This document shows, piece after piece, positions 5,423 to 36,683 of a stretch of DNA of 64,000 nt. Below the pieces are notes generated by a model that did no database searches, was not told the origin of the DNA, and saw only the letters and a list, made by a program, of their open reading frames with translations. The position numbers were made by a program, and so were the translations under genes. Origin of the DNA: Macrostomum lignano (taxonomy: Eukaryota); contig NIVC01000957.1 of the NCBI GenBank assembly GCA_002269645.1, forward strand, positions 62,001-126,000, read 5' to 3'. Numbering within the stretch: the stretch's first letter is position 1; every line of letters begins with the position of its first letter.

Positions 5423-5478
5423 AAGTGCATTACTATTTGTCAATTAAATCAATTATAAACTGTGCTAATCAAATTATA

Positions 5479-9784: not shown

Positions 9785-10072
9785 CCTCAATCCATTGTAG
9801 GCTCTGTGCGATCGATTTATATATTTAGCAGCGACCCTGCAGCTGAGACTGCGTACATTAAAAACAGAAAGCCAAGAATATTGGATGTACATCGGAAATG
9901 CACACCAGGACTAAAAACACTTATTATGCAAGCACTGGGCAGCAGGTGCCTACAATTCTCCCCAACCAGAGAGATCCCAGGGGATAAAAAAAACGAGCTC
10001 AATTACTCAGTTACTACCGGCCCAAACCCCAAAGCAATCAAAGCGGCCCGCCCACGCACAAAAACCCTAGGA

Positions 10073-13000: not shown

Positions 13001-14183
13001 TGACGCCCCAGTATCGTCAGGCCGTCGCCGTCCATAATGTGGAAGGTCGCGGTTGTTCTGGCAGATCCCACTTGGATGTCGGTAAATTTCGACAGATCGA
13101 CGGTACCCACAATCCTGAGAGGTGTCGGTACCCCGTAGGCGCGAACTTCGGCTCTTGTTGGGCGTGGGCTTGGCAGGCTGAGCGCTCTGAAGGTGCCGAG
13201 ACTCATGATACTGCAGCTGGCTCCGCTGTCAATCATCATGGGAAGCTGCCGGTTTGCCACCTGCACAGTCAGTGAGACGTCGGATGGGTATTTGTCGGGG
13301 TTGTACAGCGCGAACACATCCTCGATGACGGAGCCGTCGGCAGCTGTGAATACAGCATTGGTGCTGATTTGCTGCTGTGGGATCCGGCTGCTGTTTGACT
13401 GCCAAGGCTGACGGCAGGCAAGAGCGAGGTGGTTAGGCTTACCGCAGTTGTGGCAGATCTTGCCCTTGGCAGCGTCGCAGGTAGCGTGGCCTTTCTCGCC
13501 GCAGCGGTAGCAGGTGCGCTGCTGCTGGTCGCCGGGCCTGCTGGTCGTCTGAGCCGGGCCACGCCTGTTCGTTCTCACCTTGTCGCCCTTGGCAACGCTG
13601 GCCACGTGCGAGTCTGTCTTCTCCATCTCGATGGCTTGTTCCTCTGCAGCCTCGAATGCCCTCGCCTTTCGCAAGGCCTCTTCCAGGCTGATGTTCGCCT
13701 CCTGAAGCAGCCGCCTGCGCAGCTTGTCAGAGCTACAGGTTGCCACGAGCTGGTCTCTGATGAGCGAGTCCTTCAGCTGCTCGAAGTCGCACGGCTCTGC
13801 CGCAGTGCGCAGTCTGGCGTACCAGGACTCGATGGACTCTCCGGTGGCCTGGGTGCATAGGCGGAACTGATATCTGGCGAATACTATGTTCTTTCTTCCA
13901 TTGAAGAATGTCTTCAAAGCGTCCAGCGTCTGCTTGAGGGTGACTTGGCCGTCCTCTGTGGCCGCTGCAGGCTTGGCCTCCTCGCGGATGATGTCGGCGA
14001 TTTCCTTGCCTGCTGTGTAGCTGAGTAGTTTGCACTTTTTCTTCTCGTTGGTGATGCCTGATGCATCGATGAAGTCTTCAAAGCGGTCCGCCAATTGACT
14101 CCAGCGCTTGCCCGCGTTGTGTGGGTCTGCTGATACTGAGAATGGCTCAGGGGGGGGGGCAGTGAGAAAAAGTTGGCTGCCAT
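10073..14183 (-). pseudogene. Gypsy 1 gag-pol (zinc knuckles, protease, RT, RNase H, integrase) with frameshifts
   Basis: CYRCGEKGH and CHNCGKPNH knuckles, IDSGAS protease, AHDDVVV RT, VDASPIG RNase H, GMDFYGP/VTDNGPPF/NGATER integrase. Frameshifts at the G10 run 14150-14159 and near 10560, and a compensating pair around 11070-11140. Confidence 0.92.
10150..10322 (-). repeat. 12-bp tandem repeat encoding (PAGE/PAGQ)n in the integrase tail
   Basis: Repeated GGCAGGCTCTCC / GGCAGGTTGGCC units. Confidence 0.9.
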
Positions 14184-15605
14184 GATTTGTTTACCGCGCG
14201 GTAGGCGGCTTGCGACGCCACTGTAGAGAGCGAAGCCGAGAGAGAAAGTTATGTGTTGTGTGTAGCCGATAAAGCCTCAATCCATTGTAGGCTCTGTGCG
14301 ATCGATTTATATATTTAGCAGCGACCCTGCAGTTGAGACTGCGTACATTAAAAACAGAAAGCCAAGAATATTGGATGTACATCGGAAATGCACACCAGGA
14401 CTAAAAACACTTATTATGCAAGCACTGGGCAGCAGGTGCCTACAAAGAGTTGACCCCATCATACGGTGATCCCCTCAGACAATCCCTGGCATCCACCTGG
14501 TCAGTGTCGCAAATTCCTTCCGATCTTGTCCCGCTTTGGGACTGTTTTGTTCTGCATCACATTATTACCCTTTACAGTGACCACATTTAGACCATTTTGT
14601 TCAGGACACAATGCTACCGTTTCGTAAATATCGTACAGTATGTAGTGTAAGCATCTTTTGTGTAATTTCTGAATTCTATTAGTTAGTTAGCTTCTGTATT
14701 ATTGTTGATAATTATTGTATTTTGCTTTAATTTAGTCACGTTTTCGATGTACTTTTTCTTGTTAGTTAGTTTATTTTGCGTAAACAGGTTAGAAGTTAGA
14801 CGCCAATTCTGTGACTCAGCGGAGGGTTGAGTTTTTCTGCGAACCCCAGCTTTGCGCGGCCAGCCAATCAGAATCGGCCTGGACCCTGGCACGCGGCAAA
14901 ATCGCACTCGTGCAATTCAGCTTAGCGAGCGGCCGGCCAGACGACCACCACCCGGCTTGAGGGGGGGTTTTGAGGGTCTGACAGTGACTATATATGAAAG
15001 TGTGTTTGGCGGTCGGATCTCTTCTCTTCTCCCCGGCTTTGGTTTTGTTCCAGCTTCCCGGCCGCTTTGCCCTATTTTTGTGGTTCGCGCTTTGAGGCGC
15101 CTGAGTTCGTCACCCCGGTCCGTGTTTTGCTTCCCTGCCCGACCGCTTCAGTCTTATAGCGTAACGTCTACGGCAAATTTCTGTCTGAAGTCGTCGCTAT
15201 AAGCGCGGTTAGATAGAGACTGTCGGATTTGACCAAGTACGTGGCCTCGACCCAGAGAGCCTCAGTGTCACACTGAAGGGCAGCGCTGATAGAACTTAGT
15301 CAGTGCTCTGTTGAACGGTCAATTCGGCAGGGCTCTCGTTTGAGTGTAGGTTCTGGTTTAGGCCAGGTATTAGGAGTTTTTCTCCGTGGTCCCGTGTTCG
15401 GTTCCTCTTCTTCAGCTGAGATCCACTTGCCAATTGCATTATTAATTATTATTAATTGTTTTATCGTTATTATTGGTTCGTTATCATCAGTTCGAATTAT
15501 CTGCGCCGCGAATTACGTTAAGAATCTTGTAACTTTATTAAATCTAATTAAATCGTCGAGTAAATCAAATTTAGTCATTCTTACTAGGATTATCACTCTC
15601 TAAAT

Positions 15606-16334
15606 CTATGCGACAGGAACCGGTCGATCGAATCCGGAGATTAATGCCAGAATTGGCCAGGCACTATAGTTTGAGGATTGGTAGACGGGCATTCCATCAA
15701 TGCCGATTTTAATGTCCAGTTCAATACCTTGCGAACCTTCCGGAAGTAAAATTGAGTTGTTCAATCTTAGCAGGTTGTTTCGCAGAAGGAAGCCGATATT
15801 TGACGCGATGCCTTAGAAGTAGACAAAGTGCCCTGCTCCCATTGAATATTTCTGCACACTTTCCTTGCCATCCTTCGTTAGAAAGTAGAGCGACTTGGAG
15901 ACAGGCAAACCGCGGCTGTGTAGAGCGTTAAGTAGAAACTGCATGGCTCTGTGAGATAAATTGTAGAGCAGAAAAAGAACCAACAGCTCGTCGTCCAGAC
16001 TTTCCATACTGGGCCTTGCTGCATCAGATTCAACGCTTTCATCTTCGTTGTCCATTTCTTCGGCGTCGTTTTCGTCCGAGATAATCAAAGACTCAAGGCA
16101 CTGAACTAGGTATCGCGAGTCGAATTCACGATTAGCGGTGTGGCTGTCAGACGAATGAGGGAATTCATCGACTGCAGCTTCGAATTGATCGGCAGAAGAC
16201 GATGGAGGCAATTTTTCGGATTTCGCTCCCAACTGTTCAGCGTTCTTGGGACAGGGTAGATTGTTGGAGAGCCAGTTTCTAAACTGCCGGCTTGGATTTG
16301 TGTCGTCGAAAGTTTTCCTTCGTTTGGACGACAT
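15606..16334 (-). pseudogene. EnSpm/CACTA-like DDE transposase, N-terminal fragment
   Basis: Reading through the in-frame TAA at 15813 gives DIKIGIDGMPVYQSSNYSAWPILAL, matching the IDGLPL..SS...WPIL first-Asp motif of animal EnSpm-like transposases. The frame ends at 15606. Confidence 0.65.
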
Positions 16335-17986: not shown

Positions 17987-18171
17987 TGAAACGACAATTT
18001 ATACGGGTTTTTCCCATATTATCGTTTCCTTCTGCCAACAGTTCAGGAAGACAACGAACAATGGACCTGATGGTAACTTTCTCTGTGTGATCTCTAGAGT
18101 CACATTCTCAAACTTCAGGCGAGGATCTTTCCTCTTCAATCAGTATATTTTATAAGCTAGCACACTGTACG
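17987..18171 (+). repeat. Truncated copy of the L2 element that also sits in the capsid gene
   Basis: About 185 bp nearly identical to 29853-30037, starting at the same TGAAACGAC boundary. Confidence 0.85.
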
Positions 18172-18482
18172 TGTCCTACTCGCTTAAAAAACGTCATCCA
18201 TCCTTAATCCATCCATACTATCAGAGCATAATCCACTAACATCCACCCAGAAACAATCTGAAAATAATCTGTATTCTTCTCCACAAATTCAATTCGCAAT
18301 TCGCAACGCATCCCAAAGACTTTAAATCCCCAAACCCTGGGTCCTTACCCTTTGAAAAAATCTAAATTCTCAATAAAAATGTTTCCAGTTGTCTCTCCAG
18401 GTTCTTATTATACTCAGCCTCATCCATTGTACAAATCCAAGTACCGATGCTATCTTGCGCTACGGTAAAGCAATTAGCAATT

Positions 18483-18650
18483 GCGGTACAGCGGATGCGG
18501 TAAAGCGGATGCGGTAAAGCGGATGCAGTGCGCACTGTGGCAAAGCGGATTGTGCCTAGCACAATTCTTTTAAAGATATATATATGCTGCGGATGGACCA
18601 TAGACAAAAAGCTCAAAGCGGCGGCAGAGGCGGCGGTGCCTAGCACAATC
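18483..18650 (+). repeat. Left subterminal motif array of the YR element
   Basis: GCGGTA(A/C)AGCGGAT x3 in tandem (18483-18524), GTGGCAAAGCGGAT (18537-18550), palindrome ATTGTGC-CTA-GCACAAT (18549-18565) and GTGCCTAGCACAAT (18636-18649). Confidence 0.85.
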
Positions 18651-18810
18651 TTACTAGAGATATATATATTAACCCGGTAGCTATAGTATACGGCTGGGCT
18701 GCTCATTCATTTTTTCTGCATTATTGCCCACGCGCGCGTCCGACCGTTGTTAGCTGCAGCGAGCATCCAGCAGCCAGCGAGCAGCTGATTACGATAATAA
18801 AATATAAAAG

Positions 18811-19936
18811 ATGCAAAGTCCTCCATGGCCCGGCGATAGCCAATACGCAACCGCGGACGAGATGGCGGCCGTCCTCCTGGAAGCCTGCGAGCAGGTTGAC
18901 GCTGCTGAAGCCGCGGCCGCCGCCGCCGCCGCGGCCGCGGCCCCATCGACTGTTCCAAAGCGGCAAGAAGACGCGGAGCGGGCTGCACTAGAGGCCGACC
19001 TCTTCACGCTGGAGGCGGCGGATGAGCAGGCTGATTGCGTCATCACTGGGGTCTTCGTACCAGACAGCGACGAAGACGACGAGGCAAGTGGTCGCCTGCC
19101 ATTATTCAAGACTGAACAGCAGAGTCAGCAGCAGCATCATCAGGAGACAGCGGCTGCAGTCGCTGCAAAGCCGGAACTAAAACGACAGCCGAGAATCGGG
19201 TCAGCTGGCATCAAGCCGGCGATAACGAGTCGCTGCTTCGTATCCCGAAGTGGCACGGCCGCGTCGCTAAGCGCCGCTAAGCAGCAACAAGGGCCGACAC
19301 CGCCAAAGCGCCATTGTCAACGCCCGATAACGGCGGCGAACGCGCTGCCATCGTCGCCCTGCAGTCGCAGCAGTTCGATCCTATCGCCAGGTAGGAGTCG
19401 TTGAATGCTGCTGCTCAGTTGCTGAGCATTCGTTGTTGACCATCGATCCTTACACTTTTAGTTCATAGCTCATTACCCATATTGTGAAATTATTTGTCAT
19501 TGTTCACAACAACCACCACCAATCGTCCACTTTGACGACAGGCTGTTCTATCCCGTCGGACACTCGGTCTTCGCAGCCGCCGCCGCCGCCGCCGCCGCCG
19601 CCGCCTCCGCCGCCACCTTATTACTGCGGCGGATATACCGACGAATGGAGCGCCGCGGCCGCCTCCTACGAGACGGCTGCTGCTCACCAGCATCATCAGC
19701 AGCCGCAGCCGACACGGGACACCACGTCCAGGCTGCTCGTGCCTCGCATTCTGCTGCACCCCGAGGATGCCGTAGACGCCTCCGTTGCAGGCAGCAATGG
19801 ACAGCTGGCGAATCGGCGGGCCTACCGCGGCATGTCTGTGCTCAGGATAGCCTACGTGAAGCAACCTGGCGCGCTCAAGATGATGTTAATGTCAGCCTGG
19901 AGTGAATGGGCGACTCAACTGGCCATCAGTGAGTAG
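18811..19936 (+). CDS. Unknown low-complexity (Ala/Gln/Pro-rich) protein, first gene of the YR element, probably spliced (~18811-19390 + ~19542-19936)
   Basis: ATG in an A-rich context. Candidate CAG|GTAGGA donor near 19391 and GACAG acceptor near 19541. No recognisable domain. Confidence 0.45.
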
Positions 19937-20290
19937 CGTGGGGTTGTTGCCCTTTCCTATTTATCTACTTACTTTATTAAGCATTGCTGTTCTTTTCTTT
20001 TTATATCATTTCTGTGCAGCTCCTATGCGCGATCGACAGCGCTGATTTGCCAAACTATTGCCATAGACTATATGAATATCACAATTAATGATATATCAAT
20101 GCCATTTATTGAATTGCCACGACTGCAACACTGCCATAATCGTATAATCCCTCTTCCCCCACAATCCTCATCTGTCGCGCGCCTCCGCCCCCTCTCTCTC
20201 TCTCTGCATCATCCCATTTCTGAATAATATTGCGCCGTCTTCTTCTTCTGCATCTAATTTCTCAACTCGACGATCAACACACAAAAAACA

Positions 20291-21578
20291 ATGTCAAAAA
20301 ATAGGCGTCACTAAGAATGAGTTCGAGCCATCCAAGACGCACATTGTCGATCCATATGCGCCCCTGACCGACGATGTTAGTCGGGAGACGTCAAGCATTC
20401 ACGCATTTGTCCGCACCGCCGTCCTCCACACTAATTGCGACTTGGTCGGGCAGCTGCGTCCGATTTTCGCGTCAGGCCGCGACGCGGACACCTTTGCTGT
20501 GCGCCGCTGGACGCAAGTCGAGATCAGGAGCGTCCGCAGCGTCGAAGCCGAGCTGCGCCGGATAACTGCGCTTGACCCGGTATGCTGCACAATTAATATC
20601 GATGACAGCTGCTTGTCGCGCACCATCGTACTCTATCGTTGGGCGATGTCGTATCCGGTCGAGGCGGTGCAGCCGGATCTTGACGACCCCGTGCTAAACG
20701 CGGGCAATCCGATGTTGACAAAGCAGTCTTTAGACTACTTCAACAACATTCAACTTCTGCGTCGGATGAGGGCAGAGGCGCTCTCGGGGTTCGTCAGGCT
20801 CGGCGGCCAGCAGCAGAAGGCACTGTGCGGTGTCTGCGAGCGGCCGCCAGTGTCGTTCCGTAGTAGCGCCGCCGCCACTTTCGCCGCCTGTTCCGGTCCT
20901 TCTTCTTCGTCGGAGGACGCGTGTCGCCGCCGCAGCAACGGCGGCAGCCAGAGGGTGTCGCAGCAGCAGCCGCAGCCGCCACCGCCGCTGCCAGACGAAC
21001 TTGTGGTGACGCACCTGGGCAGCGGTCTGTGCGACGTACAGATAGCCGTGTGCCGCGCCATGCAGAGGGAGATGCCGCCGCCCACAATATATTTGTGGGG
21101 GCCTTCCGGAGTTGGCAAGACGGCCATGGTGCACCTGCACTTTGGCAGGGAGCCTGTGTTCGTGCCGGACTTGACAACAAGTTTTCCTTTCGACGGGCTG
21201 CGCTTTAACTTGCATAAGTGCATTTTTGTCGATGAATTCGATGCCAGCCGTCCAATTCCGGGTCAACTGCTGCTACTGTTCAACCGTGATAAGTTCACGA
21301 TCAATGAGAAATATCAAAGCCACAAAAAAGAGCCATGGCCACACGCCATTGTTGTGGCGGGCCACGCGGCCCCAGGGCAGATCAGTCGGGACTTCTTGCG
21401 CAGGATGACTGCAGTCGTGCACATCCCGCATAATCTGTTCGACTGCGACGGGTGCGACGCCAGTCAAGGTCGCAGCGGCAGAGGACGCCAAGATGCGGCG
21501 TCGCAGGCGGCGAAGAAAAATGTGCAGCAGCAGCAGCAGCAGCAGATGCCGCCGCCGCCACCGCCACCGCCGCAGTAG
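20291..21578 (+). CDS. CRESS-DNA-virus-like Rep: degenerate HUH-like N-terminus plus SF3 helicase
   Basis: TIYLWGPSGVGKT (Walker A), FPFDG, CIFVDEFD (Walker B), TINEKY, IVVAGH at the motif C position. The frame is open from 20148. The ATG at 20291 enters it if one A is removed from the A run at 20296-20301 (MSKIGVTKNEF...). Confidence 0.78.
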
Positions 21579-22902
21579 CAGGAGCGGCTGTTTGCCGACG
21601 ATGCCGCCGCCGTCGCCGAAGAAGAAGAAGAAGAAGAACGCGAAGCAGCCTACTATTGTTGAATAGAAACACTGATTGATTGATTGATTGATGGATGGAT
21701 GGATGGATGGAGGACATTATCGTTATTGTGCCGGCGGCGGAGGTGGGCCAGTCGTTAGGGGCTGCAGTACTGCTGCAACAATTTAGTGAGCTGCTGCAGC
21801 ACGTCAGATGCACATTGCCCACACTTCCCTTTGTTTCTTCTCTATCTTCTATCCCTTCTATCCTCTTTCCCCTTCTCTCTCTCTCCCTCTCTCTTTGGCC
21901 CTTACTTCCCCTACTTTGTTGAGGCGATGCGATGCAGGTACCGAGGTTGTGCTGCAGGCAGAAAGGTACACCTGTTCTCGTGTTCCAGTGTTTGTGTGTG
22001 TTTGTTTTTCAGTTTGTTTCGTCGTCGTTTGGAAATCGACGTGATCTCAGCCTGGCTGGCTGAATGCAACTGCAGTGTTGGTTTTGTTTCTAAGGAGTTC
22101 GATGTGCATTTTTTGTCGCTTCTGTGCGCCAGATGGGGCCGCCTAAGCAACCGTTATTTAAATATTTCGCCGCTTCTTCGCTATTGTATACCAAACCAAA
22201 CCAAACAGCTTTTTTTCCATCTCGATCAGCTGCTTCCTATTGAGCAACTTAGTAATGGTGCTGCATCCGTAATTTATATATCTTTAGTCGAAAACATTTT
22301 CTATCTACAGGGCAAATGCGCTTTTTTGGCAACATATTTGGGCCACAATATTCTCTCATTGATATTTACTCTATAATATTATGTCTGTCTACTATATTAG
22401 GGGGGGGGGTAGATATATATATATTCATCAATACGTCTATATCGCTTTGGTGCTTTTTATTGAACAGCAGAAATAGTTGCGTGTATTATTTTCTTTTGCC
22501 TTGCATAATATGCAGTGCCCTATGACCATTCGGCTTTACAGAGGGCGGGGTAGGAAAATCGGGGTGGCTGGCTAAAATTGCTTTTTGGATAGAGGGAGAA
22601 AGAGAGTGTGGGGCACTGATGCATGCGGGGGTGGGGGCTGGGTTAAGGAACACAGTCAAAAAAATCGATAGTCAACATATACAACCATAGACAACAAAAA
22701 TCCATAGACAACAGCAGAGTACATGCCCGGTGAGATTAGTCTATGAGGAGGGGGGATAGCCGGGATTTGGATGGCTAACTCTTCGCTTCTTTGTATAAAG
22801 TCAGTCAACAGTCTATGGCTCTTCCCTTCCATTTTTCACTGTAAACAATTGCAAAGAGTGATCAGGTCCAAAATCCGTTTTCTTTATTTATTCCATCGCC
22901 TG

Positions 22903-25737
22903 ATGATGTCCTTCGGAAAGTACCTCCGGCTCTTGTTCGGCTACGACGAGGAAGAGGCCCAAGACGATAGTTCAAGTAGCAGCGAATTTATGATTTCAGC
23001 ATCGATTGGAGGTGAGGCGAAACTGCGTCATCCGATCCGATATTTAAGACTCTATTCACTACATTGATTGATTGTTTGATTGATTGATTGATGGGTTGCC
23101 ATGCCATCTAACACCCATTGTACACAGTAGCAGCGGCCGCGGACAGTCCAGCGCTGGCCAGCAGCGGCGATGGCGACGGCCCTTTGACTTGCCTGCTGGA
23201 CAGCAGCCCGGCAGCGGCAGCGGCAAGTTCGGCGGCGTCGGCCAGAGGCGCGGAAGCGGCAGCGGCGGGTTCAGCGACAGTCAGAGGCACGAGTGCCGCA
23301 GCAACCGATCGCAACAAAAAATATGCCAAGCAGTGCCCTGTTCCGGGCTGCACCGCCCAGATGCGTGGAGACACGCTGAAGAGGCATTTTGCTGCGCGGC
23401 ATAAAGACTGGATCAAGCAACAGCATATCGACAGTGCCAACGAGGACGGCTGGTCTTTGGAAAGGCGTACGTCCTGGCTTTGGCGACTTTCCACCCTGCG
23501 ACCTGCGGCAGACTCTGTGGCTGTTGAGCAACAGGCAGCAAATCGTGCTCGCCGACGGGAACAGTACTGCGCCGACTGCAAGTGCTTTTATAGAGATACG
23601 ACAAAGCACGCAGCAAAGCACGCTAAAAAGCCAGCAGGTATGAGTCGCTGTCAATCTAAAATTGGAGCACATTGCTTTCAAAAGCTCACCCGTGACTTCA
23701 TTTTCGCACACCATCCATCCATAACTGCATACAGCCGATTCCTTGGCGCCTCTTGCCAAAGGCAGCAGCAGCAGCAGCCGCGACTCGGCGGCCTTGGCGG
23801 CGGATGCCAGCTGCGACTCGGCGGCGGATGCCAGCTGCGACTCGGCGGCGAATGCCAGCTGCGACTCGACGGCCTCGGCGGCGAATGCCAGCTGCGACTC
23901 GACGGCCTCGGCGGCGAATGCCAGCTGCGACTCGGCGGCCTCGGCGGCGAATGCCAGCTGCGACTCGGCGGCCTCGGCGGCGAATGCCAGCTGCGACTCG
24001 GCGGCCTCGGCGGCGAATGCCAGCTGCGACTCGGCGGCCTCGGCGGCGAATGCCAGCTGCGACTCGGCGGCCTCGGCGGCCTCGGCGGCGAATGCCAGCC
24101 GCGACTCGGCGGCCGTGAAGGCAGCGATCGCGGCGGGGGATGCTCTGGCCGTCATCAAGTTGCGCAGCAATTCCGAACTTTTGCGACAGTATCCCATCGA
24201 CGCACCGCTGCTGGCTCAGCTGAAGGTTCTGCAAGAGCTCCATTGGGATGACTCGACTGGCGTCCGCAATCCCGAGTACGACGGCCACACTGAAGCGCTG
24301 ATTGACACCTTGTCACTCGTATTGTCCGTTTGTTCAAAGATGGCAGAGGTGGCTGGTGTTGGCCTCCACGAGCGGGACTTGGTGTTCTGTCTGGCCGACC
24401 CGTCAGCAGCCGTCGCAGAGATTCGCGCCACCAGCAAGAGTTCTGGCACGGTTAGAAATCGGGCACAGGCCCTGATTCGGTGTACCCAGTACATGTTGGC
24501 ATACATCGTGCACGACCGACAACATCTGCAGTCGCTAATCGAACGCCTCGCGCTGCCGCCCGAGATTGCCGCCGACTTTGACAGCCGTTGCAACCTGCTA
24601 CAGAAGCGGTTGAAAACAGTCAGGCAGCGGCACGACTTTGAACGCCGGCTGGACGCTCCGTTGCACCACGACAAGAAGCAATGCAGACTGCTGACCCCCG
24701 TTGAGTGGCGCAAAATTCTCGACGACTACTCCGAGCTGGTCTCCGCCGGCCCCGACGTGCCCGCCGGACGTGGCTGCGCCGCCGGCTTCACTGCGATGCG
24801 CAACCGCTTCGCTCTTCACGCGACCGCGATGCATCCGCTGCGCGTTCGGCCGTGGCGCGGTCTCCGCGTAGCGCACATCCGGCCGGGTAGCGCCTGTCGC
24901 CGAGACAACGCGGAAAATGGCTATTCGACCATCCGGCTTCCCGGTCGCGAGGTGAGCCACAAGAAGATCGCCTCGGTCGGCTGCAGCGTCCTCACACTGC
25001 CGACGTCGTTCATCGACCTGCTGCTAGCCTGGCGCAGCAGTTGCATCGCCGCAGGCGACTTGCCCGCAGTGTCTAGCTCGCCGTTCGTCCTGTGCACTCT
25101 GCGAGGCGAGAAGCTGTCCGTCTCGACGTTTAGCCACTCTGTTGCAGCCTACGCCCAGCACCTGCTAGGTCGAGCCGGAGTCTGCCCGACCATCTTTCGC
25201 AGCTCAAAGCAGGACATAGCGGCGGCTGGCCGACCAGAGATGGCCGATCAGGTGGCCGCGCTTTTCGAGAATTCCGTGCCTATGATGATGAGGCACTACG
25301 CGACGAATGCCATGCTGGTTACCAGGACTAATGTTCAGGCCACAGTCGACCAGCTTGTCGCGCGGCGAGCCGCCTCCTCCTCGACGACTGCCAAGGCCTC
25401 CTCCGCCTCCACCAGCAAAACAACAGCAGCAGCAGCAGCAGCAGTCGTGCCAGCAGCCAAAGCTACACGCAGGTGCACCGCCGTCACCAATGCCGCATCC
25501 GGTCCAGCCGCCAGGACAGCAACTACGCCGACTGAAGTCTGCTTCGTGCCGTCGTTCTCGCAGCCCGTAACGCACGGTGAAGTACAGCTGATGCGATGCA
25601 AATCAAAGCGCAAAGCGGCCGCCGAAGCCAGGCTATCGTTGATGCAGGAGCAGCAGCAGAAGAAGAAAAAGAAGTCGAGTGCGGCGACGTCTGGCCCAGC
25701 CAGATGCACCGGATGTAAGCGGGGGGGGGCTAATTGA
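22903..25737 (+). CDS. Zinc-finger + tyrosine recombinase, join(22903..23011,23128..23637,23735..25737)
   Basis: Two phase-1 GT-AG introns join the ORFs in frame. CPVPGC...LKRHFAARH is C2H2-like. YR catalytic set: HPLRVRP (R), SHKKI (K), CPTIFRS (HxxR box), FENS (H/W position), MMRHYA (Tyr nucleophile). Confidence 0.82.
23780..24110 (+). repeat. 33-bp in-frame tandem repeat encoding ANASCDSAASA in the YR protein linker
   Basis: About eight GCGAATGCCAGCTGCGACTCGGCGGCCTCGGCG units plus shorter 24-bp variants. Confidence 0.92.
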
Positions 25738-25856
25738 CAGAGTGACGCAATAGCAGCAGCGCAATAGCAGAAGCAACAGACCTCTGTGTCGAAATGCGAC
25801 AGGTAGAAAAATTTCAATCAATCAGTTGTCAATTATTTATATCTAGGGCGCGCTTG

Positions 25857-25893
25857 AAATTGTGCCTGGCACCGGAGGTGCCAAGCACAATTT
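25857..25893. other. 17-bp-stem hairpin downstream of the YR stop
   Basis: AAATTGTGCCTGGCACC-GGA-GGTGCCAAGCACAATTT, 16 of 17 pairs perfect, built from the same motif found at the element ends. Confidence 0.85.
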
Positions 25894-26241
25894 CTTGCGC
25901 GACCCTTTGTCATAATAATTGTTTTGCCGCCGCCTATATATAACTATATAGCCATAGTTGATGCTGCAAGCGCGCTACCTGGATTAGCTAAATTGCTGCA
26001 AATTGTTATAGTTAATGCAATAATGTAAACTGAAAACTGAATCCTGTAATGCTTGTCTAATATATATATATTGTGCCACTTTTATTATGCCCATGCTCTG
26101 TTCTCCGTTTTCTCCGCTTTATTTTAACAACAATTTGATAGATTAATTAGGCGATAGGCATGTCTCGTATACTACACAGGCTAGCCAGATATAGCAACAA
26201 ATGAAACTTCCCCATAGCTATATATATCTACTTTTATAGAC

Positions 26242-26490
26242 ATTGTGCTAGGCACCAACAGTGAATTGTGCTACCTAACTTACTAGCTGCCAAATTTCTG
26301 CCACGTATATATTTACAATTCCTTCTATAGTTGCCGTTTTTATCCGCTTTGCCGCAGTTCTGCGCACTTCTATCTCCGCTTTGCCGCACTCATATGTTAC
26401 CAATGTATAGCGCTTTGCCGCAGTTCTGCGCACTTCTATCTCCGCTTTGCCGCACTCATATGTTACCAATGTATAGCGCTTTGCCGCAGT
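26242..26490 (-). repeat. Right subterminal motif array of the YR element, including a 66-bp tandem repeat
   Basis: ATTGTGCTAGGCACC (26242-26256). 66-bp unit starting at 26346, 26412 and 26478 with repeated (T/A)CCGCTTTGCCGC, the reverse complement of the left-end motif. Confidence 0.85.
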
Positions 26491-27526
26491 TATCCGGCCT
26501 GTTTACCGCCGTGAAAGCCAAATGATATGGCAAACTTGAATGCAGCGAGTATATGAGAAAATATTGGCCCGGCGTTGCCGGCGTTGATATCAATGTTCCT
26601 AATATTAATCTAGCTTTCCAAAGACACTGGTTTCATAAGTATGGAGTAACCTACGTAAAAGATTACGACAGCTACTATAACTTTGCAGAAATCATTAGAC
26701 AATTGCGTTCAAAATCTCAAGTCGAAACTTAGTAGTTGTCATGAGGGAAGTTCTGGGACAAAAGAGAATAAATCCCCCACAGATCAACATCTAGTAAAAT
26801 CTATCTATACATAATGCTCTTACATTTAAAATTAGCTATCCCAATGCAATGCTTACAACCAATCATCTAAGGGGATAACATCAGTCTACCACCCTCCCCT
26901 CCCTAGGACAGCCAAAAAAATCAACATAATCTAAGGGCGAAAGGTAGCGGTATTTTCACTTAAGTTACAGGACTTATAATTAATAGTATGCAGCCAAAAA
27001 AACTGAAAGGCCAAAATCCTTTTCATTCTGGCCTTCACTCGAGGCCAAAATCCTTTTCATTTTGGCCTTCACCCGATGCCAAAATCGTTTGCATTCTGGC
27101 CTTGCGCAATGCCGAAATCCTTTGCATTCTAGCCTTCCCTCGAGACGGAATTCTTTCTCGGCTGGGCTCAGTTAAAGTGAAAATCTCTCTCTCCCCCCCA
27201 CACGCACTCTCTCTACCCCCATATCTTTCAAAAGTCTTCCCAATTCCTTGTTAGGAGCGCACAAAATAAACTCTGCTCCCGAGCCTCCGCCCTCTCTCCT
27301 CGTGCACCAGCCCTCTCTCCCTATGCACCCGCCCTCGGCGTCCATTCCCAACCCCAACTTTGTCATACCAAAAATAACCGCCTTGACTAATTTCCTAGCA
27401 ATCGACTCACGAAATCCGCTCGAAGATTGTATGTACAGCTTAGAACTTTCTGGAATTTTCAACTGCTAGCTGTATTTAAAGCCACACTACTAGAAGCTAA
27501 GTCAAGCACAATATAATTTTTAATGC

Positions 27527-28138
27527 ATGGCGTCTAAGGCCTCCGATATAGTTGAAAAATTAAAAGACATGTCGAAGAAAGATTCGCATTCGTTAGCGAT
27601 TGTAATTAACAATTTAGAGGACCGTCAGCGTACTGAGATCCTCCAAACTCTTCAACAAATTGACGAAAATACCTCAGAAAAGAAGAAGGAAAAAGCCGAA
27701 AAAGAGACTAGAAGCAAAGCAGAAGCCGAGGGTCGCTTCATTGGGCGGCTTAAAGCCAAGCTGGAAACGTTTGAGACGATCGTGGTAAAGACGAGATTTA
27801 CGAATGCGCGGGAACTATTAATGAAACCGCTTGACGATGACAATGATGACGATCTGAAGAATTACGTTCACAAGCTCGATATCTTCATTGGCGAGCTTGA
27901 GATTCTGAAATGCCTAGCCAATCGAGCGCAGGGCAATGCTGTGCTCCTGTCAGCAACACGACATGGCACGATTGCGAAGGCCGCCAGCAAGCTCAACATC
28001 AACGTGAAGAAGGCGGAAAGGGTCGCCAACTATGCCAAGTTTACACGACTCTATCCAAGCCTAGTATTTACTGGCTATAGTATGGATACCATACTAAACC
28101 GAAAGGCGGTCATTGAACGCGCAGCTCTAGAAGACTAG
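27527..28138 (+). CDS. Unknown Polinton-associated helical protein (family X, copy 1)
   Basis: 203-aa ORF. The C-terminal YAKFTRLYPSLVFTGYSMDTILNRKAVIERA resembles the C-termini of 36801-37430 and 53221-53855. Confidence 0.6.
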   Translation: MASKASDIVEKLKDMSKKDSHSLAIVINNLEDRQRTEILQTLQQIDENTSEKKKEKAEKETRSKAEAEGRFIGRLKAKLETFETIVVKTRFTNARELLMKPLDDDNDDDLKNYVHKLDIFIGELEILKCLANRAQGNAVLLSATRHGTIAKAASKLNINVKKAERVANYAKFTRLYPSLVFTGYSMDTILNRKAVIERAALED

Positions 28139-28688
28139 AACATGAGAAGCGCGATGGAGCTGGAGCCGGAAGATGTCCAATTTGACTATGAAGAAGAGGA
28201 AGAGGAGATCCTCTATAATGCATACGACGAATTTCTTGAGTGAATGCTTTTATTTTGATTTCGCGCCATTTCCTGTCTTAACAGGAATTCGCACGAATTC
28301 AACTGTGCAAAATAGCATTTTTCTGAGAAAGACTAGTGCGCAGTTGGATTCGCGCCATTTACTGTCTTTAAAGGACTTCGCACGAATTCAACTGTGCAAA
28401 AAAGCTTTTTTCTGAGAAAGACTAGTGACAGACTTGTGTTTGTTATGTGCGAATACTTTCGAAGTTAACCAACTTTTGACATAACAAAACAATAGACTGA
28501 GCACAGACTATCTTTTTGTGTCCGATTTTTTTGTGTTTTCAATCCTTTCACTAAATACTGGTTAGAAAAAAAATAATGCTTGGTCAGTCCAAAAAGCGTG
28601 AGGTTACCTACTAATAAAAAATATGACTAGAAAAAATATCCTAAAAATTCGAAATAGAACTGAAATAAAATATTGAGTTATTTTAACA

Positions 28689-29590
28689 TCACATTCTCTC
28701 AATGATCAACGTCAGTACAAACTCTTCACCGTTGAAATCAACACCCATCCCATCTTCAGTCTCAAACTGTAGCACAATCTCGTGAATCTCCTTATTACTC
28801 AATACAACTCTTTTCACTGGATTTGGTTTCTCTACCAGCATCTGTCCTTCAGCAACAGAGTTGGAGATATTGTACAAAATATTAGTTCGCTTTCCCTTAA
28901 ATACCCAATCAAGACTAAGATTACTTCTGATAAGAATATTTAAACTCTTTACAATATCTGCAATATTGGGTGCTAAGAACAAACCGCTTACACTTTCCCG
29001 GGCCATTCTAACAGTCCCCGACGTTTGAGTGGCGGGTGGGAGATGTGGGATACGGATCTCAGGTGGGAGATGGGGCTGGGTCCGCGCCGCGGATTCTACC
29101 TTATAAACTTTTTTCTCGAATCCCAATTCCCTATACCAAGTGTCATCTTTAAACTCAACCTCCGCATCTTTGTGAACTTGCATGACCACTCTCATTACAG
29201 TGAGGTCATAGGTTAGTTTTACAGGGAACATTTTTTATCTGGCTTACTCGCATCAGGTGTCTCGAAATGGCCTCTTTTAGTAAAGACGTTTTCTAGAAAG
29301 TAATTGTAGGCACTTTGCGTGCTAACATGGAATACCACAGGGTCTGCTGCTGCACCTTTCCATTTGTAATAAAACTTATTATTTGCTGCCGTCACATTGG
29401 GAACGTTTGACCAACCAGTGAAGTCGTTAAGATGGACATGGTAATTAGCACCTGGATCTAGGCGAATCGCCCGCTCTAATTTTTCAACAAATATCCCGTT
29501 TGAGTCATTAATTCGCCCGGTTATTGTAATAGGAATGCTCTCCTTAGAGTGTGAAACAATGTTGTTTAGTCTTTCAGCAATCGCTTCCAT
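28689..29590 (-). pseudogene. Polinton minor capsid (penton) protein, frameshifted near 29225
   Basis: N-terminal half ...AIRLDPGANYHVHLNDFTGWSNVPNVTAANNKFYY. C-terminal ...IVLQFETEDGMGVDFNGEEFVLTLIIE, a typical Polinton penton ending. Directly downstream of the major capsid gene. Confidence 0.78.
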
Positions 29591-29612
29591 TTTTTTCACC
29601 CACAAAAAATAT

Positions 29613-31351
29613 TTAAACTTTACTGGATGAGTTGTTGATCATGTTAAGCTTCACCTTCCTCTCAAATGCATAGATAATGTACAGGTCCACGTGTGTTGCG
29701 GCAGTCCTCTCAATGTTAGTCACGATATTCACAGGGCTGTTATCAGTAGGCATTTGTCTGGCAGACACATCAGCACCAAACATCGGATATAGAGTTCCAT
29801 ATTGAAGAGCAGTGATAGCAATTCCATTGTTCTCTTTCACAGCCAAGTCGACTGAAACGACAATTTATATGGGTTTTTCCCATATTATCGTTTCCTTCTG
29901 TAAACAGTTCAGGAAGACAACGAACAATGGACCTCGATGGTAACTTTCTCTGTGTGATCTCTAGAGTCACATTCTCAAACTTCAGGCGAGGATCTTTCCT
30001 CTTCAATTAGTATATTTTATAAGCTAGCACACTGTACGCGAGCAACGAGGAATGGGAGCAGTAGGGGGAGAGAGTGGGATTTCGAGGCCCAATAGGCAGT
30101 GTCGGTCAGAGGTTGTGCATGCATCACGCGAGGGTCGCATGGCTGGGCTTCTTGCTTGCCGATCATCAGGACTATTTTTAGGCATGCAGATCTTGTGCAT
30201 CTGGGGAGTTGCTGCCAAGGCTGGATGCTTGTTCACGCATCACGCGCGTGTCGGCTGATTTCTCCCATCCTCTTGCTAACGGCGCCTTCGTTTCACTTCA
30301 CGACCAACTCGCTGTAAAATTTGCTAATCTTGTTCTGACTGAAATATCCATTTTGTGGCAGTGCAGGGTAAAGATTATCACTGATTTCATGCTGAATGGA
30401 CCGAACGTCTCCATGCATGTAGCGTATAATGCTATTTGGGTTTCTCATGTTAATAATAATATACCTTGGATTGCTGCATGATCCCTCTTTAATGCAGATG
30501 TTTGTTCTAGTTTCGTTTCGCTCATCTCTACACATGTAGGCTGTGTATGCAACATCAATGTCCTTCTCTATTGCCTTGAGATAATCCGCTTTTAGTGCGG
30601 TCTTTGGCTCAATGACTTCCAAATACAGCTCGATTCCGGTTAGCTTCACCTCCATCCTTGTGTGGTCCGCCCCAGTCCACAACACTCTACTGCGATCATC
30701 TCTAGTCAGTCTAAATGTGTAGCTAAAGTTACTAGTCAGTCGATTAAATGTATTACAGAATCCACTCATGAATCTCAATGGTACAAATACATCAACAGAC
30801 CGATACAGCGGGTTCTTAGCAGCATCATCAGCACCTTGCAATGCATAGTTGTATCTCTTCTTCCTATTTTTATAGCCACTGTCATTGATATCTCCTTCTT
30901 TTTCATCTGCAATAAAACCCGCACCACTTCCCAACTGAATAAAATCAGGATTCTCGATCAAACAATGAGCGTCATAGACAATTCCAAAGTTGGCGATTCG
31001 CTCCAACTCTGTGCTCCCATTCGATACACTAAACTCCTTGAACATGTACGCCCAAAAGTTACTGATCAGAGCCACATCCGCATCATGCTTGTCAACGTTA
31101 GCACGAGCCGCATCCGCACCACCCTTTGTCTTGAATTGAAATGTCATATGGAAGCCGCTCTTAAGACTGTGCACACTAACCAAAGACGAACATCCATTGT
31201 ATGTAAATGTCAGTGTTTGACCAGGACCAAGATTAGTTTCATTCTGATTTTCCTGACTGGGAACTCTTACCTGAGTCGCTTTGATTGTGCTATCATCACT
31301 CAAAATAGGCTTGTTAATTTTGTAGAAAACTGGTGTCAGCGGGTCGTTCAT
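29613..31351 (-). pseudogene. Polinton major capsid protein (double jelly-roll), interrupted by a 448-bp insertion
   Basis: Removing 29853-30300 with one CGAC copy joins ...KFYSELV-DLAVKENNGIAITALQYGTLYPMFGADVS...DLYIIYAFERKV in frame. Size, gene position and the LYPxFxxDVS-type C-terminus fit a Polinton MCP. Confidence 0.8.
29853..30300. mobile_element. 448-bp TG...CA insertion (family L2; solo-LTR- or MITE-like) in the MCP gene
   Basis: Flanked by a CGAC duplication (29849-29852, 30301-30304). Starts TGAAACGA and has the inverted TCGTTTCA at 30288-30295. Confidence 0.82.
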
Positions 31352-31381
31352 TTTTTAACTAAAAATAAAATAAAATAAGAA

Positions 31382-32113
31382 ATGAAGCGAAAAAGTACAC
31401 AGCAGATATCTGAATTGGAGAAGCTAGCACAAGCAGAGAAACGAGTTACCGGGCTAATAAATAAGGAGCAACAATCCTACAATGAGTTTGTCCAGGCAGC
31501 CACAGAGTTTCATAAGCCTGGGTATGGAGAAGCTAAGAAAAATATTGATCAAGTCAAAGAAACTATCGACGACATACAGGAAACCCAGGTGAAAAAGGCT
31601 TTGGGAAAAATTCCAGAAGCACCACAGATACAGCCGCAACCACAGACACAACCGCAACCACAAAAACCACAACCACAACAATCACAACCACAACCACAAC
31701 TAAAAGTGACAGATAACATTTTTGGACCAGTAGAGCGTGTAGAACATGATGGGAAATATGTATTTGGAATAAGTATGTGGAGAAAAAATATTTATAATGA
31801 ACCAGTGGAATATTATATCGACATAAATAAGAAACATATTTCGGTTGTCAAAGGCTCGGAAACTAAGAGCATTCCTTTCACAGAAACGTTACTGAATTTT
31901 ATGACCAAGAACCAAGAGAGAATCTTGGACAAACAGCTAAAGAACTATAGAGATCTAGTGACTTTCGCTATTGCTAGAGATATAGAAATACTAAAGGCCC
32001 TAGAAGTCCTGAAACTTATGTATGATAACGGCGTCAACCTGACTAAATTCAAAAAGTACAAGCACTTTAAACAATGGTTTGATTTGCCAGATCAGGCGGA
32101 AGTCATAAAATAA
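31382..32113 (+). CDS. Unknown Polinton protein with a Gln/Pro-rich linker, divergent from MCP
   Basis: 243-aa ORF with an A-rich ATG context inside the structural module. Confidence 0.55.
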   Translation: MKRKSTQQISELEKLAQAEKRVTGLINKEQQSYNEFVQAATEFHKPGYGEAKKNIDQVKETIDDIQETQVKKALGKIPEAPQIQPQPQTQPQPQKPQPQQSQPQPQLKVTDNIFGPVERVEHDGKYVFGISMWRKNIYNEPVEYYIDINKKHISVVKGSETKSIPFTETLLNFMTKNQERILDKQLKNYRDLVTFAIARDIEILKALEVLKLMYDNGVNLTKFKKYKHFKQWFDLPDQAEVIK

Positions 32114-32627
32114 CTAGAACAACAACAACAACAGCAACAACAACAACCACAACCACAGCAGCAACATTCCACAGAAGAACAAGTACTCAGTCAACTCGAG
32201 CAGTTAGACCCTTTGAAAGTAGCTGAATATAAGAAACAAACCCAACAGACTGGCAACACTTAGAACAACACTCTCCAGATCGAATGAACAGAATCAAGCA
32301 AAGAGTTTTCACACCTCAACAAAGACAGGCACCACATGACAGTTCCATCTCTGAAAGTGAGCAGTCTTTTGCATCACCTCCCAGCAGCTACAAGCCCAAC
32401 CAACTCCACAACCCCAAGACCAACCGCCCTCAACTGGAAAAGGAATTTCTGAAATCTACAAGCGAGTAGCGGTTCTTCTAGGAGCGGCAAAGACCGGAAT
32501 GAAAGACGAGAATTGAGAAGAATTTGTCAACATCCTGGACAAAATGCTTGAGAGAAAATACATCGATAAGAGGGCGAGAGAGCTTCTGCTTCCGCGGTTC
32601 AACAAAAAATAATTTATTTCAAGTAAA

Positions 32628-33868
32628 ATGCCGATTATTTTCGAAAAAGACATTGGCAAATACTATGACAAAGAAGTGTCACGATGTTGGCGTAGCGGCT
32701 AACTATGGCTATGACCCTTAAAAGGGCCGTTTTGACGAGAGTTGTAGCGAGTCGTAGTCTCAAAATAATTTGAAGTCAACTTATTGTAAAGCGGATTTTG
32801 TAGCGGAGCACTTGGCGATAAAGGCAGGAACTGCCGTAGTTGTTTTTATTGTTAATATCAATATTAGGCTTGGTTAGGACTGTCAATGCACAGACTATGG
32901 CTTTCTGGGCACTGGCGGCGGCAACAACGGGTTGAATATAATTTGGATATGAAGTCAAGTGACAGGCGGATGATGCAATGACGACGTAACGTGGTGAGCA
33001 GTGGCAATGAGCACAGTGGAGGCAGTGAGTAGCAGTGGCGAGAGTGGCGTCAGCCGTGGCGTGAGACAGTCAAGTAAGCGTGTGAGTAGGCTGGCCCAGA
33101 CGGAGGGGCCGTGGCGAGAAATAAGGAGGCTCGAGACAGCCAGACAGAGAGAACGAGGCAGGCACAAGGCCAAGGACCAGAACAGACAGGAACAGACAAG
33201 AACCGATAAGTGAGGAGTGCCCGCCGCCAGGCGGGGGGTTAATAAAGGAGGGCAGAGGGGGTAGCGCGAAGCACGAGCGGTTTTCATTGGCTGGCGAGAG
33301 AACTTAAAATTATTGATCGTGCCAATTTTATACGGTCGCGAGAGAGGATAGCAAAATATACAGTAAATTACAAATTGCCACAAAATCGTTGGGCACTACT
33401 ACAAGTAAACGTCGCAATAAACAAATGGAAAAGTTTAGTTGAAACGGTGAAACTGAAGGGTTGAAACTATAGAGAAACAGCAGTCCAACGGCCCTTTTCG
33501 GGGCCACCTCAAACTGGCAACGTCACAAGGAACTTAATCTTATTAAACGCGGATCTGGACTTTTCCCTGCAGGCTACTATCCAAGAAAAGAACGCTCTGG
33601 GAATGGCCTTGCCGATTTGATCGCTCAGGGGGCCAAGATTTTTAAGGTCATTGGAGAGAACAAAGAGAACATCAAGAACTTTGCCGAAGCGGCTGGCAGT
33701 GTAGCCACAGCAGCCAAAAAGATAAAGGATACTGTAACACCTAAACAAGAGATTCAACCGCTGGCCCCGCTGGCTCCACTGGCCCCAAATCCAGACAGTG
33801 TGGACCCTGCAGTCTATGAGAAGATGAGAGCTAGCATTAAAAAAGGAAGTGGTTTCAAATTTGACTAA
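32628..33868 (+). pseudogene. Small core/cement-like virion protein split by an L1 insertion (32628..32676 + 33528..33868)
   Basis: Excision gives MPIIFEKDIGKYYDKEEELNLIKRGSGLF...RSGNGLADLIAQG... in frame. The GSG/GNG motifs resemble adenain-type cleavage sites of Polinton core proteins. Confidence 0.55.
32677..33527 (-). mobile_element. Second, diverged copy of solo-LTR family L1 (851 bp)
   Basis: Reverse complement begins TGTGACGTTGCCAGTT and ends GTGACA, colinear with 8930-9784. No clear TSD. Confidence 0.85.
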
Positions 33869-33917
33869 AGGGTACTTTCCGAGGGTACAAGAAATGTAAA
33901 GGTATAAGACTAGACCC

Positions 33918-34055
33918 AAAATGACACATCCAAGTCCCAAAATGACACATCTAAGTCCCAAAATGACACATCTAAGTCCTGAAACGACACAATTAAGTCC
34001 CGAAACGACACAATTAAGTCCCAAAATGACACATCCAAGTCCCAAAATGACACAT
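33918..34055 (+). repeat. 21-bp minisatellite (~6.5 units) upstream of the ATPase
   Basis: AAAATGACACATCCAAGTCCC and GAAACGACACAATTAAGTCCC variants. Confidence 0.92.
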
Positions 34056-34101
34056 CTTCTAAATGATTTATTATTTAAAAAAAAATTCATCATAGAAAAA
34101 A

Positions 34102-36266: not shown

Positions 36267-36683
36267 ATGCTTCCAATCGTTTCTCCAGGTTCTTATTACA
36301 AAGCGCACGAGCCTAATTACAAGAGTAAGTACCGATGCAAACTAGAATGCAGCAAATACATGAGAAAATATTGGCCTGGCGTTGATATCAATGTCCCTAA
36401 TATTAATCTAGCTCCCCAAAGACACTGGTTTCATAAGTATGGAGTAGTTATTAACGATTACGACAACTACTATAACTTTGCAAAGGCAACTTCAGTGTAT
36501 GCTATAGCACTCTTGCATGGTAAATCCAATACAACAACCTCAAAATTCTGGGCAACTACAGAGCCTTGCATTTGCAGAAGACAGAATAACAATATAAAGC
36601 AGCTGGTGTCAGTGTCGATCGCGCGAAAGCTACTGTATCTATTGTATAATACACTGAGAAAAATTCCTAGAGCCATATCTTAG
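36267..36683 (+). CDS. Subterminal small unknown ORF (target gene of the YR element), copy B
   Basis: MLPIVSPGSYY...KYRCKLECSKYMRKYWPGVDINVPNINLAPQRHWFHKYGV. Homologs at 52069-52341 and in copies A and D. Confidence 0.55.
   Translation: MLPIVSPGSYYKAHEPNYKSKYRCKLECSKYMRKYWPGVDINVPNINLAPQRHWFHKYGVVINDYDNYYNFAKATSVYAIALLHGKSNTTTSKFWATTEPCICRRQNNNIKQLVSVSIARKLLYLLYNTLRKIPRAIS

Follow-up and report, generated by a model that had tools for sequence, protein, structure and literature searches.

Results

An 8,081-bp insert interrupts an ORF in a Polinton terminal repeat

We analyzed a window of 64,000 nucleotides of Macrostomum lignano DNA (contig NIVC01000957.1, positions 62,001 to 126,000), in which an 8,081-bp insert, at window positions 18451-26531, precisely splits a small ORF in the terminal repeat of a Polinton. 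The features of the locus are as follows.

18379-18450, plus strand: interrupted Polinton terminal-repeat ORF, copy A, 5' part
18439-18456, plus strand: left junction, made of a 6-bp target arm, a 6-bp target spacer ending in GC and the element left arm TATCTT
18451-26531, plus strand: complete element of subfamily F1, delimited by flank alignment, with a Rep-derived helicase gene (gene 1) and a zinc-finger/likely tyrosine-recombinase gene (gene 2)
18551-18647, strand not assigned: two palindromes, TGTGC-N3-GCACA, near the left end, candidate protein-binding sites
18811-19390, plus strand: gene 1 exon 1, low-complexity N terminus (GT..AG joint 19391-19541 in runs X16 and X17)
19542-19928, plus strand: gene 1 exon 2, last 70 codons kept in relatives, GTGAGT donor behind
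20148-21578, plus strand: Rep ORF, HUH-derived domain followed by SF3 helicase
22903-23011, plus strand: gene 2 exon 1, start codon predicted (GT..AG joint 23012-23127 in run X12 only)
23128-23637, plus strand: gene 2 exon 2, two Cys/His zinc-finger-like motifs kept in relatives
23725-25737, plus strand: likely tyrosine recombinase ORF
25856-25894, strand not assigned: hairpin of two such palindromes, 3' of the recombinase gene
26244-26256: further palindrome copy of the TGTGC-N3-GCACA type
26345-26491, plus strand: 66-bp tandem repeat that precedes the right end and holds five CTTTGCCGC units
26520-26537, plus strand: right junction, made of the element arm, the element spacer TATGGC and the target arm AAACTT
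26532-26732, plus strand: interrupted Polinton ORF, copy A, 3' part
26532-35375, strand not assigned: Polinton arm 3' of the insertion (major capsid 30293-31354, A32 ATPase 34096-34902)
36329-36343, plus strand: empty site, Polinton copy B, GTACCGATGCAAACT unbroken
52263-52282, minus strand: empty site, Polinton copy C, GTACCGATGCAAACT unbroken

The flanks of the insert (18171-18457, 98.6%, and 26530-27406, 97.4%) align to the unbroken copy C (52548-51396, minus strand) without a target site duplication and, when translated, read ...KSKYRC on the left and KLECSEY... on the right. The first-pass annotation had described a precise insertion of 8,081 bp and two uninterrupted copies, B and C, and both descriptions are borne out. 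A fourth Polinton piece, D (about 54045-54690), has the site with a one-base variant. The interrupted ORF belongs to the long inverted terminal repeat of one Polinton family. Elements that carry pPolB, rve, MCP and A32 ATPase have it at each of their two ends, and all 12 copies read keep the frame open (64-90 aa). Contigs with the empty site are present in the sequencing runs, where their source may be any of hundreds of Polinton copies (600 candidates).

Only GC is common to both junctions, as the same annotation had noted. The element begins with TATC and ends with GATATGGC, so that the GATA/TATC inverted pair, previously taken as the core of a YR-like crossover site, is indeed present at the element ends, and the spacer TATGGC is the same in the copy on contig C1267 (G000). 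The earlier suggestion of a ..GC/AAA.. target consensus holds in the form GC^WAACTT. The TGTGC-N3-GCACA motif also occurs near the ends of subfamilies F2-F4, and six of its seven matches in the window (2.1 expected per window) fall inside the element.

No third ORF is conserved, and the other frames scanned matched no family, although a very divergent capsid would escape such a scan. Further, positions 18451-26531 contain no double-jelly-roll capsid, packaging ATPase, PolA/AEP or pPolB replicase, nor any reverse transcriptase match (reverse transcriptase plus RNase H being the DIRS/Ngaro feature). Both genes contain introns, and splice joints were seen for two of these (19391-19541 and 23012-23127); the RNA status of runs X8, X12, X16 and X17 is a software guess. 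An end-to-start joint, as expected of a circle, was not among the joints listed for seven runs, a listing that covers all joints but one and part of the loose ends; the runs were read as assembled contigs, in which presence is informative and absence is not.

Gene 1 is predicted to encode a Rep-derived helicase

The predicted product of gene 1 is a CRESS-type Rep in which the HUH metal and tyrosine residues are lost and the SF3 Walker motifs are kept. The reading frame runs from exon 1 on into exon 2, behind which we infer an acceptor in the Rep frame, with 20305 as the candidate position; one X16 contig departs from the element sequence at 19928. A single-sequence homolog search with Rep found nothing. 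When Rep was aligned with 28 CRESS-like Reps, hhalign gave 99.9% (E 7e-35) over motifs II-III and the helicase, and the profile of the relatives matched PDB entries for the helicases of E1 and AAV Rep at E of about 1e-10. The aligned CRESS-like Reps keep Y..K and mostly HxH; five of five aligned rows from the host genome lack both, and the catalytic Tyr is missing in every row of alignment A1 that covers motif III. For motif I in exon 2, hhalign was negative, the likeness being visual only. The SF3 motifs comprise Walker A (GPSGVGKT), Walker B (VDE) and an arginine finger; the Asn of motif C is replaced (AGH), and with this change helicase activity of the Rep derivative is not certain. Rolling-circle transposition by Rep was rejected, as the HUH catalytic residues are absent. 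Because Rep can still be aligned to CRESS-like Reps, the loss of the HUH residues was likely independent of that in papilloma- and polyomaviruses. Our Rep tree is a quick tree labeled by crude regex.

Gene 2 likely encodes a divergent tyrosine recombinase

The product of gene 2 is likely a zinc-finger protein with a divergent tyrosine recombinase, an assignment based on motifs and weak matches. Its intron at 23638-23734 is predicted from GT/AG and frame only. Across the family, an R, a K, a second R and a Y are conserved, and the canonical His positions are replaced. The weak matches are to a PHROG integrase (E 0.0097, in 2 of 11 rows), Pfam Phage_integrase (E 0.048 and 0.12) and XerC (E 0.05); a search against PDB sequences gave no significant match. 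The structure models were poor (pLDDT 43 and 41), and the fold search with them returned no match at E≤0.001, the top Foldseek row for the recombinase, on the pLDDT-41 model, being Cre at E 0.29. Among eight proteins of the family, none matched DUF3504 or GCR1_C at E≤1, whereas the Cryptons of the same genome do match DUF3504 or QRICH1. The two proteins that a profile search with the recombinase found come from the same species; a search of longer proteins gave none.

Copies of the element lie at sites that resemble its left end

End searches found three left and two right ends of F1. The window copy differs from the C1267 copy by four substitutions in 8,080 columns and from the truncated C2240 copy by none in 3,758, and the contig depth of the left and right halves of the element in three DNA-like runs (about 3:2) agrees with three assembled F1 copies. 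The flanks of these three near-identical copies are the Polinton repeat, a Tc1/mariner terminal repeat (empty in seven of seven copies read) and a site behind an ankyrin gene, for which empty alleles occur on three contigs; the junctions of the C2240 copy are imprecise and allow two readings. We conclude that the element is recently mobile.

The family totals about 20-30 loci. Rep and recombinase genes occur together in five subfamilies, in tandem in F1-F4 and convergent in F5, which diverge down to ∼33% identity in Rep and ∼23% in the recombinase, with a third-codon excess between subfamilies (recombinase 85/58/195; Rep 139/115/215). The two genes also occur apart, at Rep-only loci (F6) and at recombinase-only loci, and no Rep was found within the 10-20 kb read at the recombinase-only loci C228, C157 and C4612.

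Where an empty allele is known and the junction is clean, the target matches the element's own left-end octamer at 6/8, 7/8, 7/8 and 8/8 positions. The F1 matches are 6/8 (background 0.5%) and 7/8 (background 0.04%); the F5 matches, each with four empty copies, are 7/8 at C150 (background 0.06%) and 8/8 at C3646 (background 0.002%). Within the 6-bp spacer, target and element have only the 2 bp of one edge in common (GC in F1, AC in another subfamily), and the spacer register is shifted by one base in F2/F3. The bases shared at both element ends amount to 2-3 bp in F1 and to a 5-bp direct repeat in F5. Overall, the element likely integrates at short sites similar to its left end, and the Polinton terminal repeat happens to contain one.

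Most mapped insertions lie outside Polintons

The first-pass annotation had proposed that the element may target the Polinton ORF, and this did not hold for the family. Only 2 of 13 mapped family sites, the ascertained window included, and one of the three near-identical copies are in Polintons; the other 11 family sites have no Polinton match within 300 bp when compared with 46 Polinton loci. At a Polinton genome share of 1-3%, which is our own estimate, the chance probability is 0.007-0.056 for 2 of 13 with the window counted and 0.11-0.31 for 1 of 12 without it. The count covers those family sites for which an end could be mapped, and contigs that share a flank enter it once; outside it are loci with no mapped end (F4 at C1024/C1651 and C1267b/C751/C3828, then C255/C1205, C1567, C29, C1023, C414, C2978, C3177 and C1413) and C277, the end of which is truncated. 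The left flank of C2240 was rejected as Polinton: its 149-bp match, a small repeat of high copy number, is to one Polinton-bearing locus and lies at least 265 bp away from the junction. The two Polinton-borne sites are in unrelated genes of two different Polinton families, and the octamer accounts for both. An extended 18-bp target pattern finds the Polinton repeat in 25 of the first 100 sites listed, but the pattern was derived from these two Polinton targets, and its count (760 versus 16) is therefore circular as support for targeting. We rejected Polinton targeting as a habit of the family. Copies at unrelated random targets had been named as the outcome that would speak against the proposal: the targets are indeed unrelated, but their sequence, given the octamer preference, is not random.

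Discussion

Rather than a Polinton parasite, the element is likely a transposon of a type not described before, one that copies itself. We think it probable that it belongs to a flatworm family of DNA transposons in which a likely tyrosine recombinase is combined with a CRESS-type Rep stripped of its nicking residues, and that it integrates at sites resembling its left end. More tentatively, eukaryotic DNA transposons of this kind may replicate themselves and form a new superfamily, in which a CRESS Rep independently made into an E1-like, origin-binding helicase is joined with a tyrosine recombinase in a capsid-less integrative animal plasmid.

The nick of such a recombinase leaves a 5'-OH and cannot prime synthesis. 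We propose that the recombinase would excise the element as a double-stranded circle, which host enzymes would copy with the help of the helicase, the Rep derivative acting like papillomavirus E1 or polyomavirus large T in origin binding and as an SF3 helicase. The recombinase would then re-integrate the circle at self-like sites, with a first strand exchange that may need only the 2-bp GC (or AC) at one spacer edge, as with IntDOT. For IntDOT, 2-bp identity at one side of the overlap region is described as sufficient (PMC2817482); CTnDOT is a bacterial conjugative transposon, and the analogy is one of mechanism only.

We found no such element in the literature, Repbase lying outside the comparison. 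As in the Cryptons described in PMC3212892 and PMC9977147, an intron-containing, likely tyrosine recombinase comes without TIRs and the target resembles one terminus, a property that PMC9977147 reports for Crypton targets; further, TATGG, with which most CryptonS are reported to terminate, is present within the F1 right end. Unlike Cryptons, the element has a second conserved gene, the Rep-derived SF3 helicase, linked in five subfamilies (the word "helicase" occurs 0 times in the main text of PMC3212892). Its recombinase lacks DUF3504/GCR1_C, in a comparison made without CryptonS and Repbase-only groups; the 2-3 common bases of F1 differ from the 4-6-bp direct repeats described for Cryptons, and F5 has 5 bp. 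Of the R-H-R-Y tetrad of Crypton recombinases, both R and the Y are conserved, together with a K, the His positions are replaced and the profile matches are weak. Papilloma- and polyomaviruses carry an inactivated HUH domain, fused in E1 and large T to an SF3 helicase (PMC6668415), as in the element, which, unlike them, has no recognized capsid gene, has a recombinase and is integrated. The Polinton-like viruses of PMC11296320 and bioRxiv 10.64898/2026.10.13.758929 similarly have an integration/replication module, with a tyrosine recombinase beside a primase-SF3 helicase, but the element is 8 kb, lacks capsid, ATPase, protease and long TIRs, and has an HUH-derived N-terminal domain in place of the PolA or AEP described there. 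Helitrons and Replitrons (PMC10288648) are likewise eukaryotic transposons built on a Rep protein; there, an active HUH nuclease is the transposase and the helicase is Pif1, whereas the element has lost the catalytic residues and has a recombinase and an SF3 helicase. Viral Rep/NS1-like genes are also described in fungal, planarian and Hydra repeats (the truffle geminivirus-like transposon, PIVE and DENSOV_HM; PMC3198968), of which the truffle transposon differs from the element in its transposases and 37-bp TIRs. Neither "tyrosine" nor "recombinase" occurs in the main text of that paper. DENSOV_HM could be a relative.

It is unlikely that the element is a Crypton-like cut-and-paste transposon, in which the Rep derivative would be an accessory for end binding, ATP-driven target capture or regulation and would copy nothing. 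The low copy number (3 for F1 and the few tens of loci in all), the unseen circle joint, the changed motif C, the recombinase-only relatives and the Crypton-like direct repeat of F5 agree with this reading; the full Rep architecture and Walker motifs, however, survive 33% identity and a change of gene order, and the three near-identical copies amount to a net copy gain, yet CryptonF-1_cRei is reported to gain copies without a helicase (PMC9977147). We consider it very unlikely that a small circular DNA virus, whole or as a segment, has integrated here, its capsid being encoded elsewhere or too diverged to be recognized. The closest relatives with named domains are CRESS-like Reps on 2.3-5.3 kb contigs, tyrosine-less relatives occur in ENA, JGI and Logan assemblies, and the size of the element resembles that of a papillomavirus genome; against this, just two genes are conserved, the other frames being unconserved and without a family match, both genes have spliceosomal introns, and the viral and metagenome contigs scanned contained no relative. 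Hardest to credit is that the element is parasitic on Polintons, whether by targeting them or as a satellite carried in their virions. The missing capsid and the two Polinton sites would agree with this reading; against it, the other 11 sites are elsewhere, identical Polinton sites by the hundred remain empty and the element termini are not Polinton-like.

How recombinase-only eukaryotic transposons gain copies is an open question, and the family of transposons proposed here brings its own candidate replication helicase. Since the family is recently active and transcribed in a flatworm kept in the laboratory, circle formation, replication and target choice are directly testable. If our reading is true, the family would be an independent case of the switch from HUH nuclease to origin binding that papilloma- and polyomaviruses have made, and would parallel, in a living element, the transition by which rolling-circle ssDNA viruses gave rise to small dsDNA viruses.

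Insertion and recent copies of the element

The 8,081-bp insert spans window positions 18451-26531, and its flanks align to one unbroken stretch of copy C, an uninterrupted Polinton copy in the same window, at 97-99% identity; the other such copy, B, matches the flanks at about 80-84%. The first-pass annotation had claimed a precise insertion, and this observation was confirmed; the flank translations read as claimed, and GC are the sole bases common to both junctions. The interrupted ORF, of 90 codons, lies within the inverted terminal repeat of an abundant Polinton family (600 first-look candidates, 40 of these scored). All 12 copies read keep it open, and it occurs close to both ends of elements that carry pPolB, integrase, capsid and ATPase. 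The window is nearly all mobile DNA (280-6600, 9770-14445, 41100-47800, and 26532-54700); it holds a Helitron that carries RPA, two Gypsy elements, of which one lies within the Polinton polymerase region, and four pieces of Polintons, some inverted. An unnamed 1-kb repeat (14634-15612) recurs inside or beside family members on genome contigs C2956, C3789, and C283.

A genome search with both element ends returned three left and two right ends. The copy on contig C1267 is complete, differs from the window insert by 4 substitutions over 8,080 columns, and is precisely inserted in the terminal repeat of a Tc1/mariner family, the homologous sites being empty in 7 of 7 read. The C2240 copy comprises the left 3.76 kb, with 0 substitutions relative to the window, and sits behind an ankyrin-repeat gene, with empty alleles on three contigs; at its junctions, which allow two readings, about 10 target bases were lost. 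In three DNA-like runs, left and right halves had contig depths of ~3:2, which is consistent with the known copies, depth not being equivalent to copy number. At window 20866, 12 bases of a CGC repeat are absent that are present in both other copies and in contigs of the aligned sequencing runs, reflecting either an assembly slip or a private deletion.

Two genes of the element

Features of the insert (window coordinates)
20148-21578, ORF of the Rep-derived helicase
23725-25737, ORF of the likely tyrosine recombinase
19391-19541, GT-AG intron, from contigs of runs X16 and X17 (guessed to be RNA)
23012-23127, GT-AG intron, from contigs of run X12 (guessed to be RNA)
19929, third splice donor, one contig

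A Pfam scan of the insert named only a weak P-loop. Among the Atlas clusters nearest to the Rep ORF are CRESS Reps, and a profile from 13 family Rep rows retrieved 169 proteins at E ≤ 0.001. Of these, 28 long relatives that carry Rep motifs could be aligned to the family with a probability of 99.9%, spanning motifs II and III and the helicase. A profile of these relatives matched papillomavirus E1 and AAV Rep with E values of about 1e-10; geminivirus Rep N-domains followed at 1e-3. Y..K is present in the 28 CRESS-like relatives and HxH in most; both are absent in 5 of 5 host-genome rows aligned. The family Rep retains Walker A, Walker B, and the arginine finger, and its motif C is altered. ENA, JGI, and Logan assemblies contain further relatives without the tyrosine (contigs of 0.9-3.4 kb), which cluster with the flatworm Rep rows in a quick tree (SH-aLRT 98).

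We also noted a large set (P0013-P0152) of CRESS-like Reps on contigs of 2-5 kb; they have papillomavirus/parvovirus-like helicases and mostly lack a Pfam Rep domain, and two scans of viral contigs found none of them. A second family of tyrosine-less Reps, of ~700 amino acids, occupies repeated units of at least 9 kb (C2367:100674-103024, C157:525002-526974, C267:28239-30706 and 47673-50158, and C2362), with no recombinase match found nearby.

The recombinase ORF, preceded by a zinc-finger exon, has a helical N-part and R, K, R, and Y conserved in recombinase order. Its several matches to tyrosine recombinases are weak, none being significant by itself, and PDB profile searches gave no match. 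The acceptor of the third intron and the whole fourth intron are predicted from the reading frame. A third-position excess between subfamilies indicates that both Rep and recombinase are under selection. One run guessed to be RNA omits 59 bases over the hairpin at 25857-25917, probably a library artefact. Loci that pair a zinc finger with a recombinase of this family lie at C228:19411-23080, C157:501281-504509, and C4612, with no Rep within the stretches read; the UniRef name Ras-GEF for their proteins is apparently a misannotation.

Genome protein searches gave 55 recombinase and 48 Rep matches, counted as pieces rather than copies, and linkage was judged in 20-50 kb regions around them. Rep and recombinase are linked in tandem in subfamilies F1 (that of the insert) to F4, which have the palindrome TGTGC-N3-GCACA in common in their end regions, and are convergent in F5 (identity about 33% for Rep and 23% for recombinase); more distant loci also carry either gene alone. 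Family members are clustered, with three to four elements inside 40 kb (C2956:53000-82000 and C3789:53000-93500); on C1267 (158760-170900), just 2 kb separates the F1 copy from an older element of F4 type.

Target choice

The element had been proposed to target the Polinton ORF or to travel as a satellite in Polinton virions. We compared 13 independent sites, each with at least one mapped end, with 46 Polinton-bearing loci at DNA and protein level within 300 bp. Only two of the 13 sites had a Polinton match, namely the window and an F5 end, the latter in a pPolB gene of a different Polinton family; the parasite reading was not supported. From 974 pPolB candidates and an element size of 8-16 kb, Polintons were estimated at ~1-2% of the genome. 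With the window left out, 1 of 12 sites is unremarkable (probability 0.11-0.31 at a 1-3% share); with the window, an ascertained site, counted, the probability is 0.007-0.056. The Polinton library is incomplete, and a Polinton family may thus have been missed. Overall, the element is very probably not Polinton-specific.

The family is associated more with true Cryptons (DUF3504/QRICH1) than with Polintons. Although the 764-Mb genome yields just 362 Crypton candidates, five loci have a Crypton at a family end or no more than about 2.5 kb from it. Nesting occurs in either direction: F5 is inserted 150 bp before a Crypton ORF on C150, and on C283 a Crypton with a 6-bp direct repeat lies within F5. 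Common transposon-dense regions may explain this proximity.

Crypton-adjacent family loci
C150:337068
C283:522752-524582
C491:387977-389831
C1024:126668-127303
C1267:155781-157143

Sequence is the property common to the target sites. The four clean sites for which an empty allele is known agree with the left-end octamer of the element itself at 6/8, 7/8, 7/8, and 8/8 positions (backgrounds 0.5% to 0.002%). Aligned in register, each junction has the layout arm(6)-spacer(6)-arm(6), at best AAG-N12-CTT, with identity limited to the last two spacer bases; the target spacer is retained at the left junction and the element spacer at the right. F2/F3 ends have related arms shifted by one base.

Mechanism and novelty

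Our data establish precise insertion without a TSD, self-like targets, recent movement, two conserved spliced genes, and lost HUH catalytic residues. In the model that we favor with moderate confidence, the recombinase would excise the element as a circle, host enzymes would copy it with the Rep derivative as an origin-binding helicase, and the circle would re-integrate under a 2-bp identity rule. The copying step is modeled on papilloma- and polyomaviruses, in which the HUH domain of the replication proteins is inactivated (PMC6668415), and the last on IntDOT, which follows such a rule (PMC2817482). No circle joint (element end to start) was among the joints listed for contigs of seven runs.

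The element integrates in a manner similar to that described for Cryptons (PMC3212892, PMC9977147) but falls outside them in recombinase type and gene content. Lacking their HUH residues, it is not a Helitron, Replitron, or CRESS member, and, with no capsid gene found, it does not fit the PLVs or viruses. Literature searches found no element with the Rep and recombinase pair, although subscription journals, Repbase Reports, or supplements may describe one. The element is likely a new type of recombinase DNA transposon.
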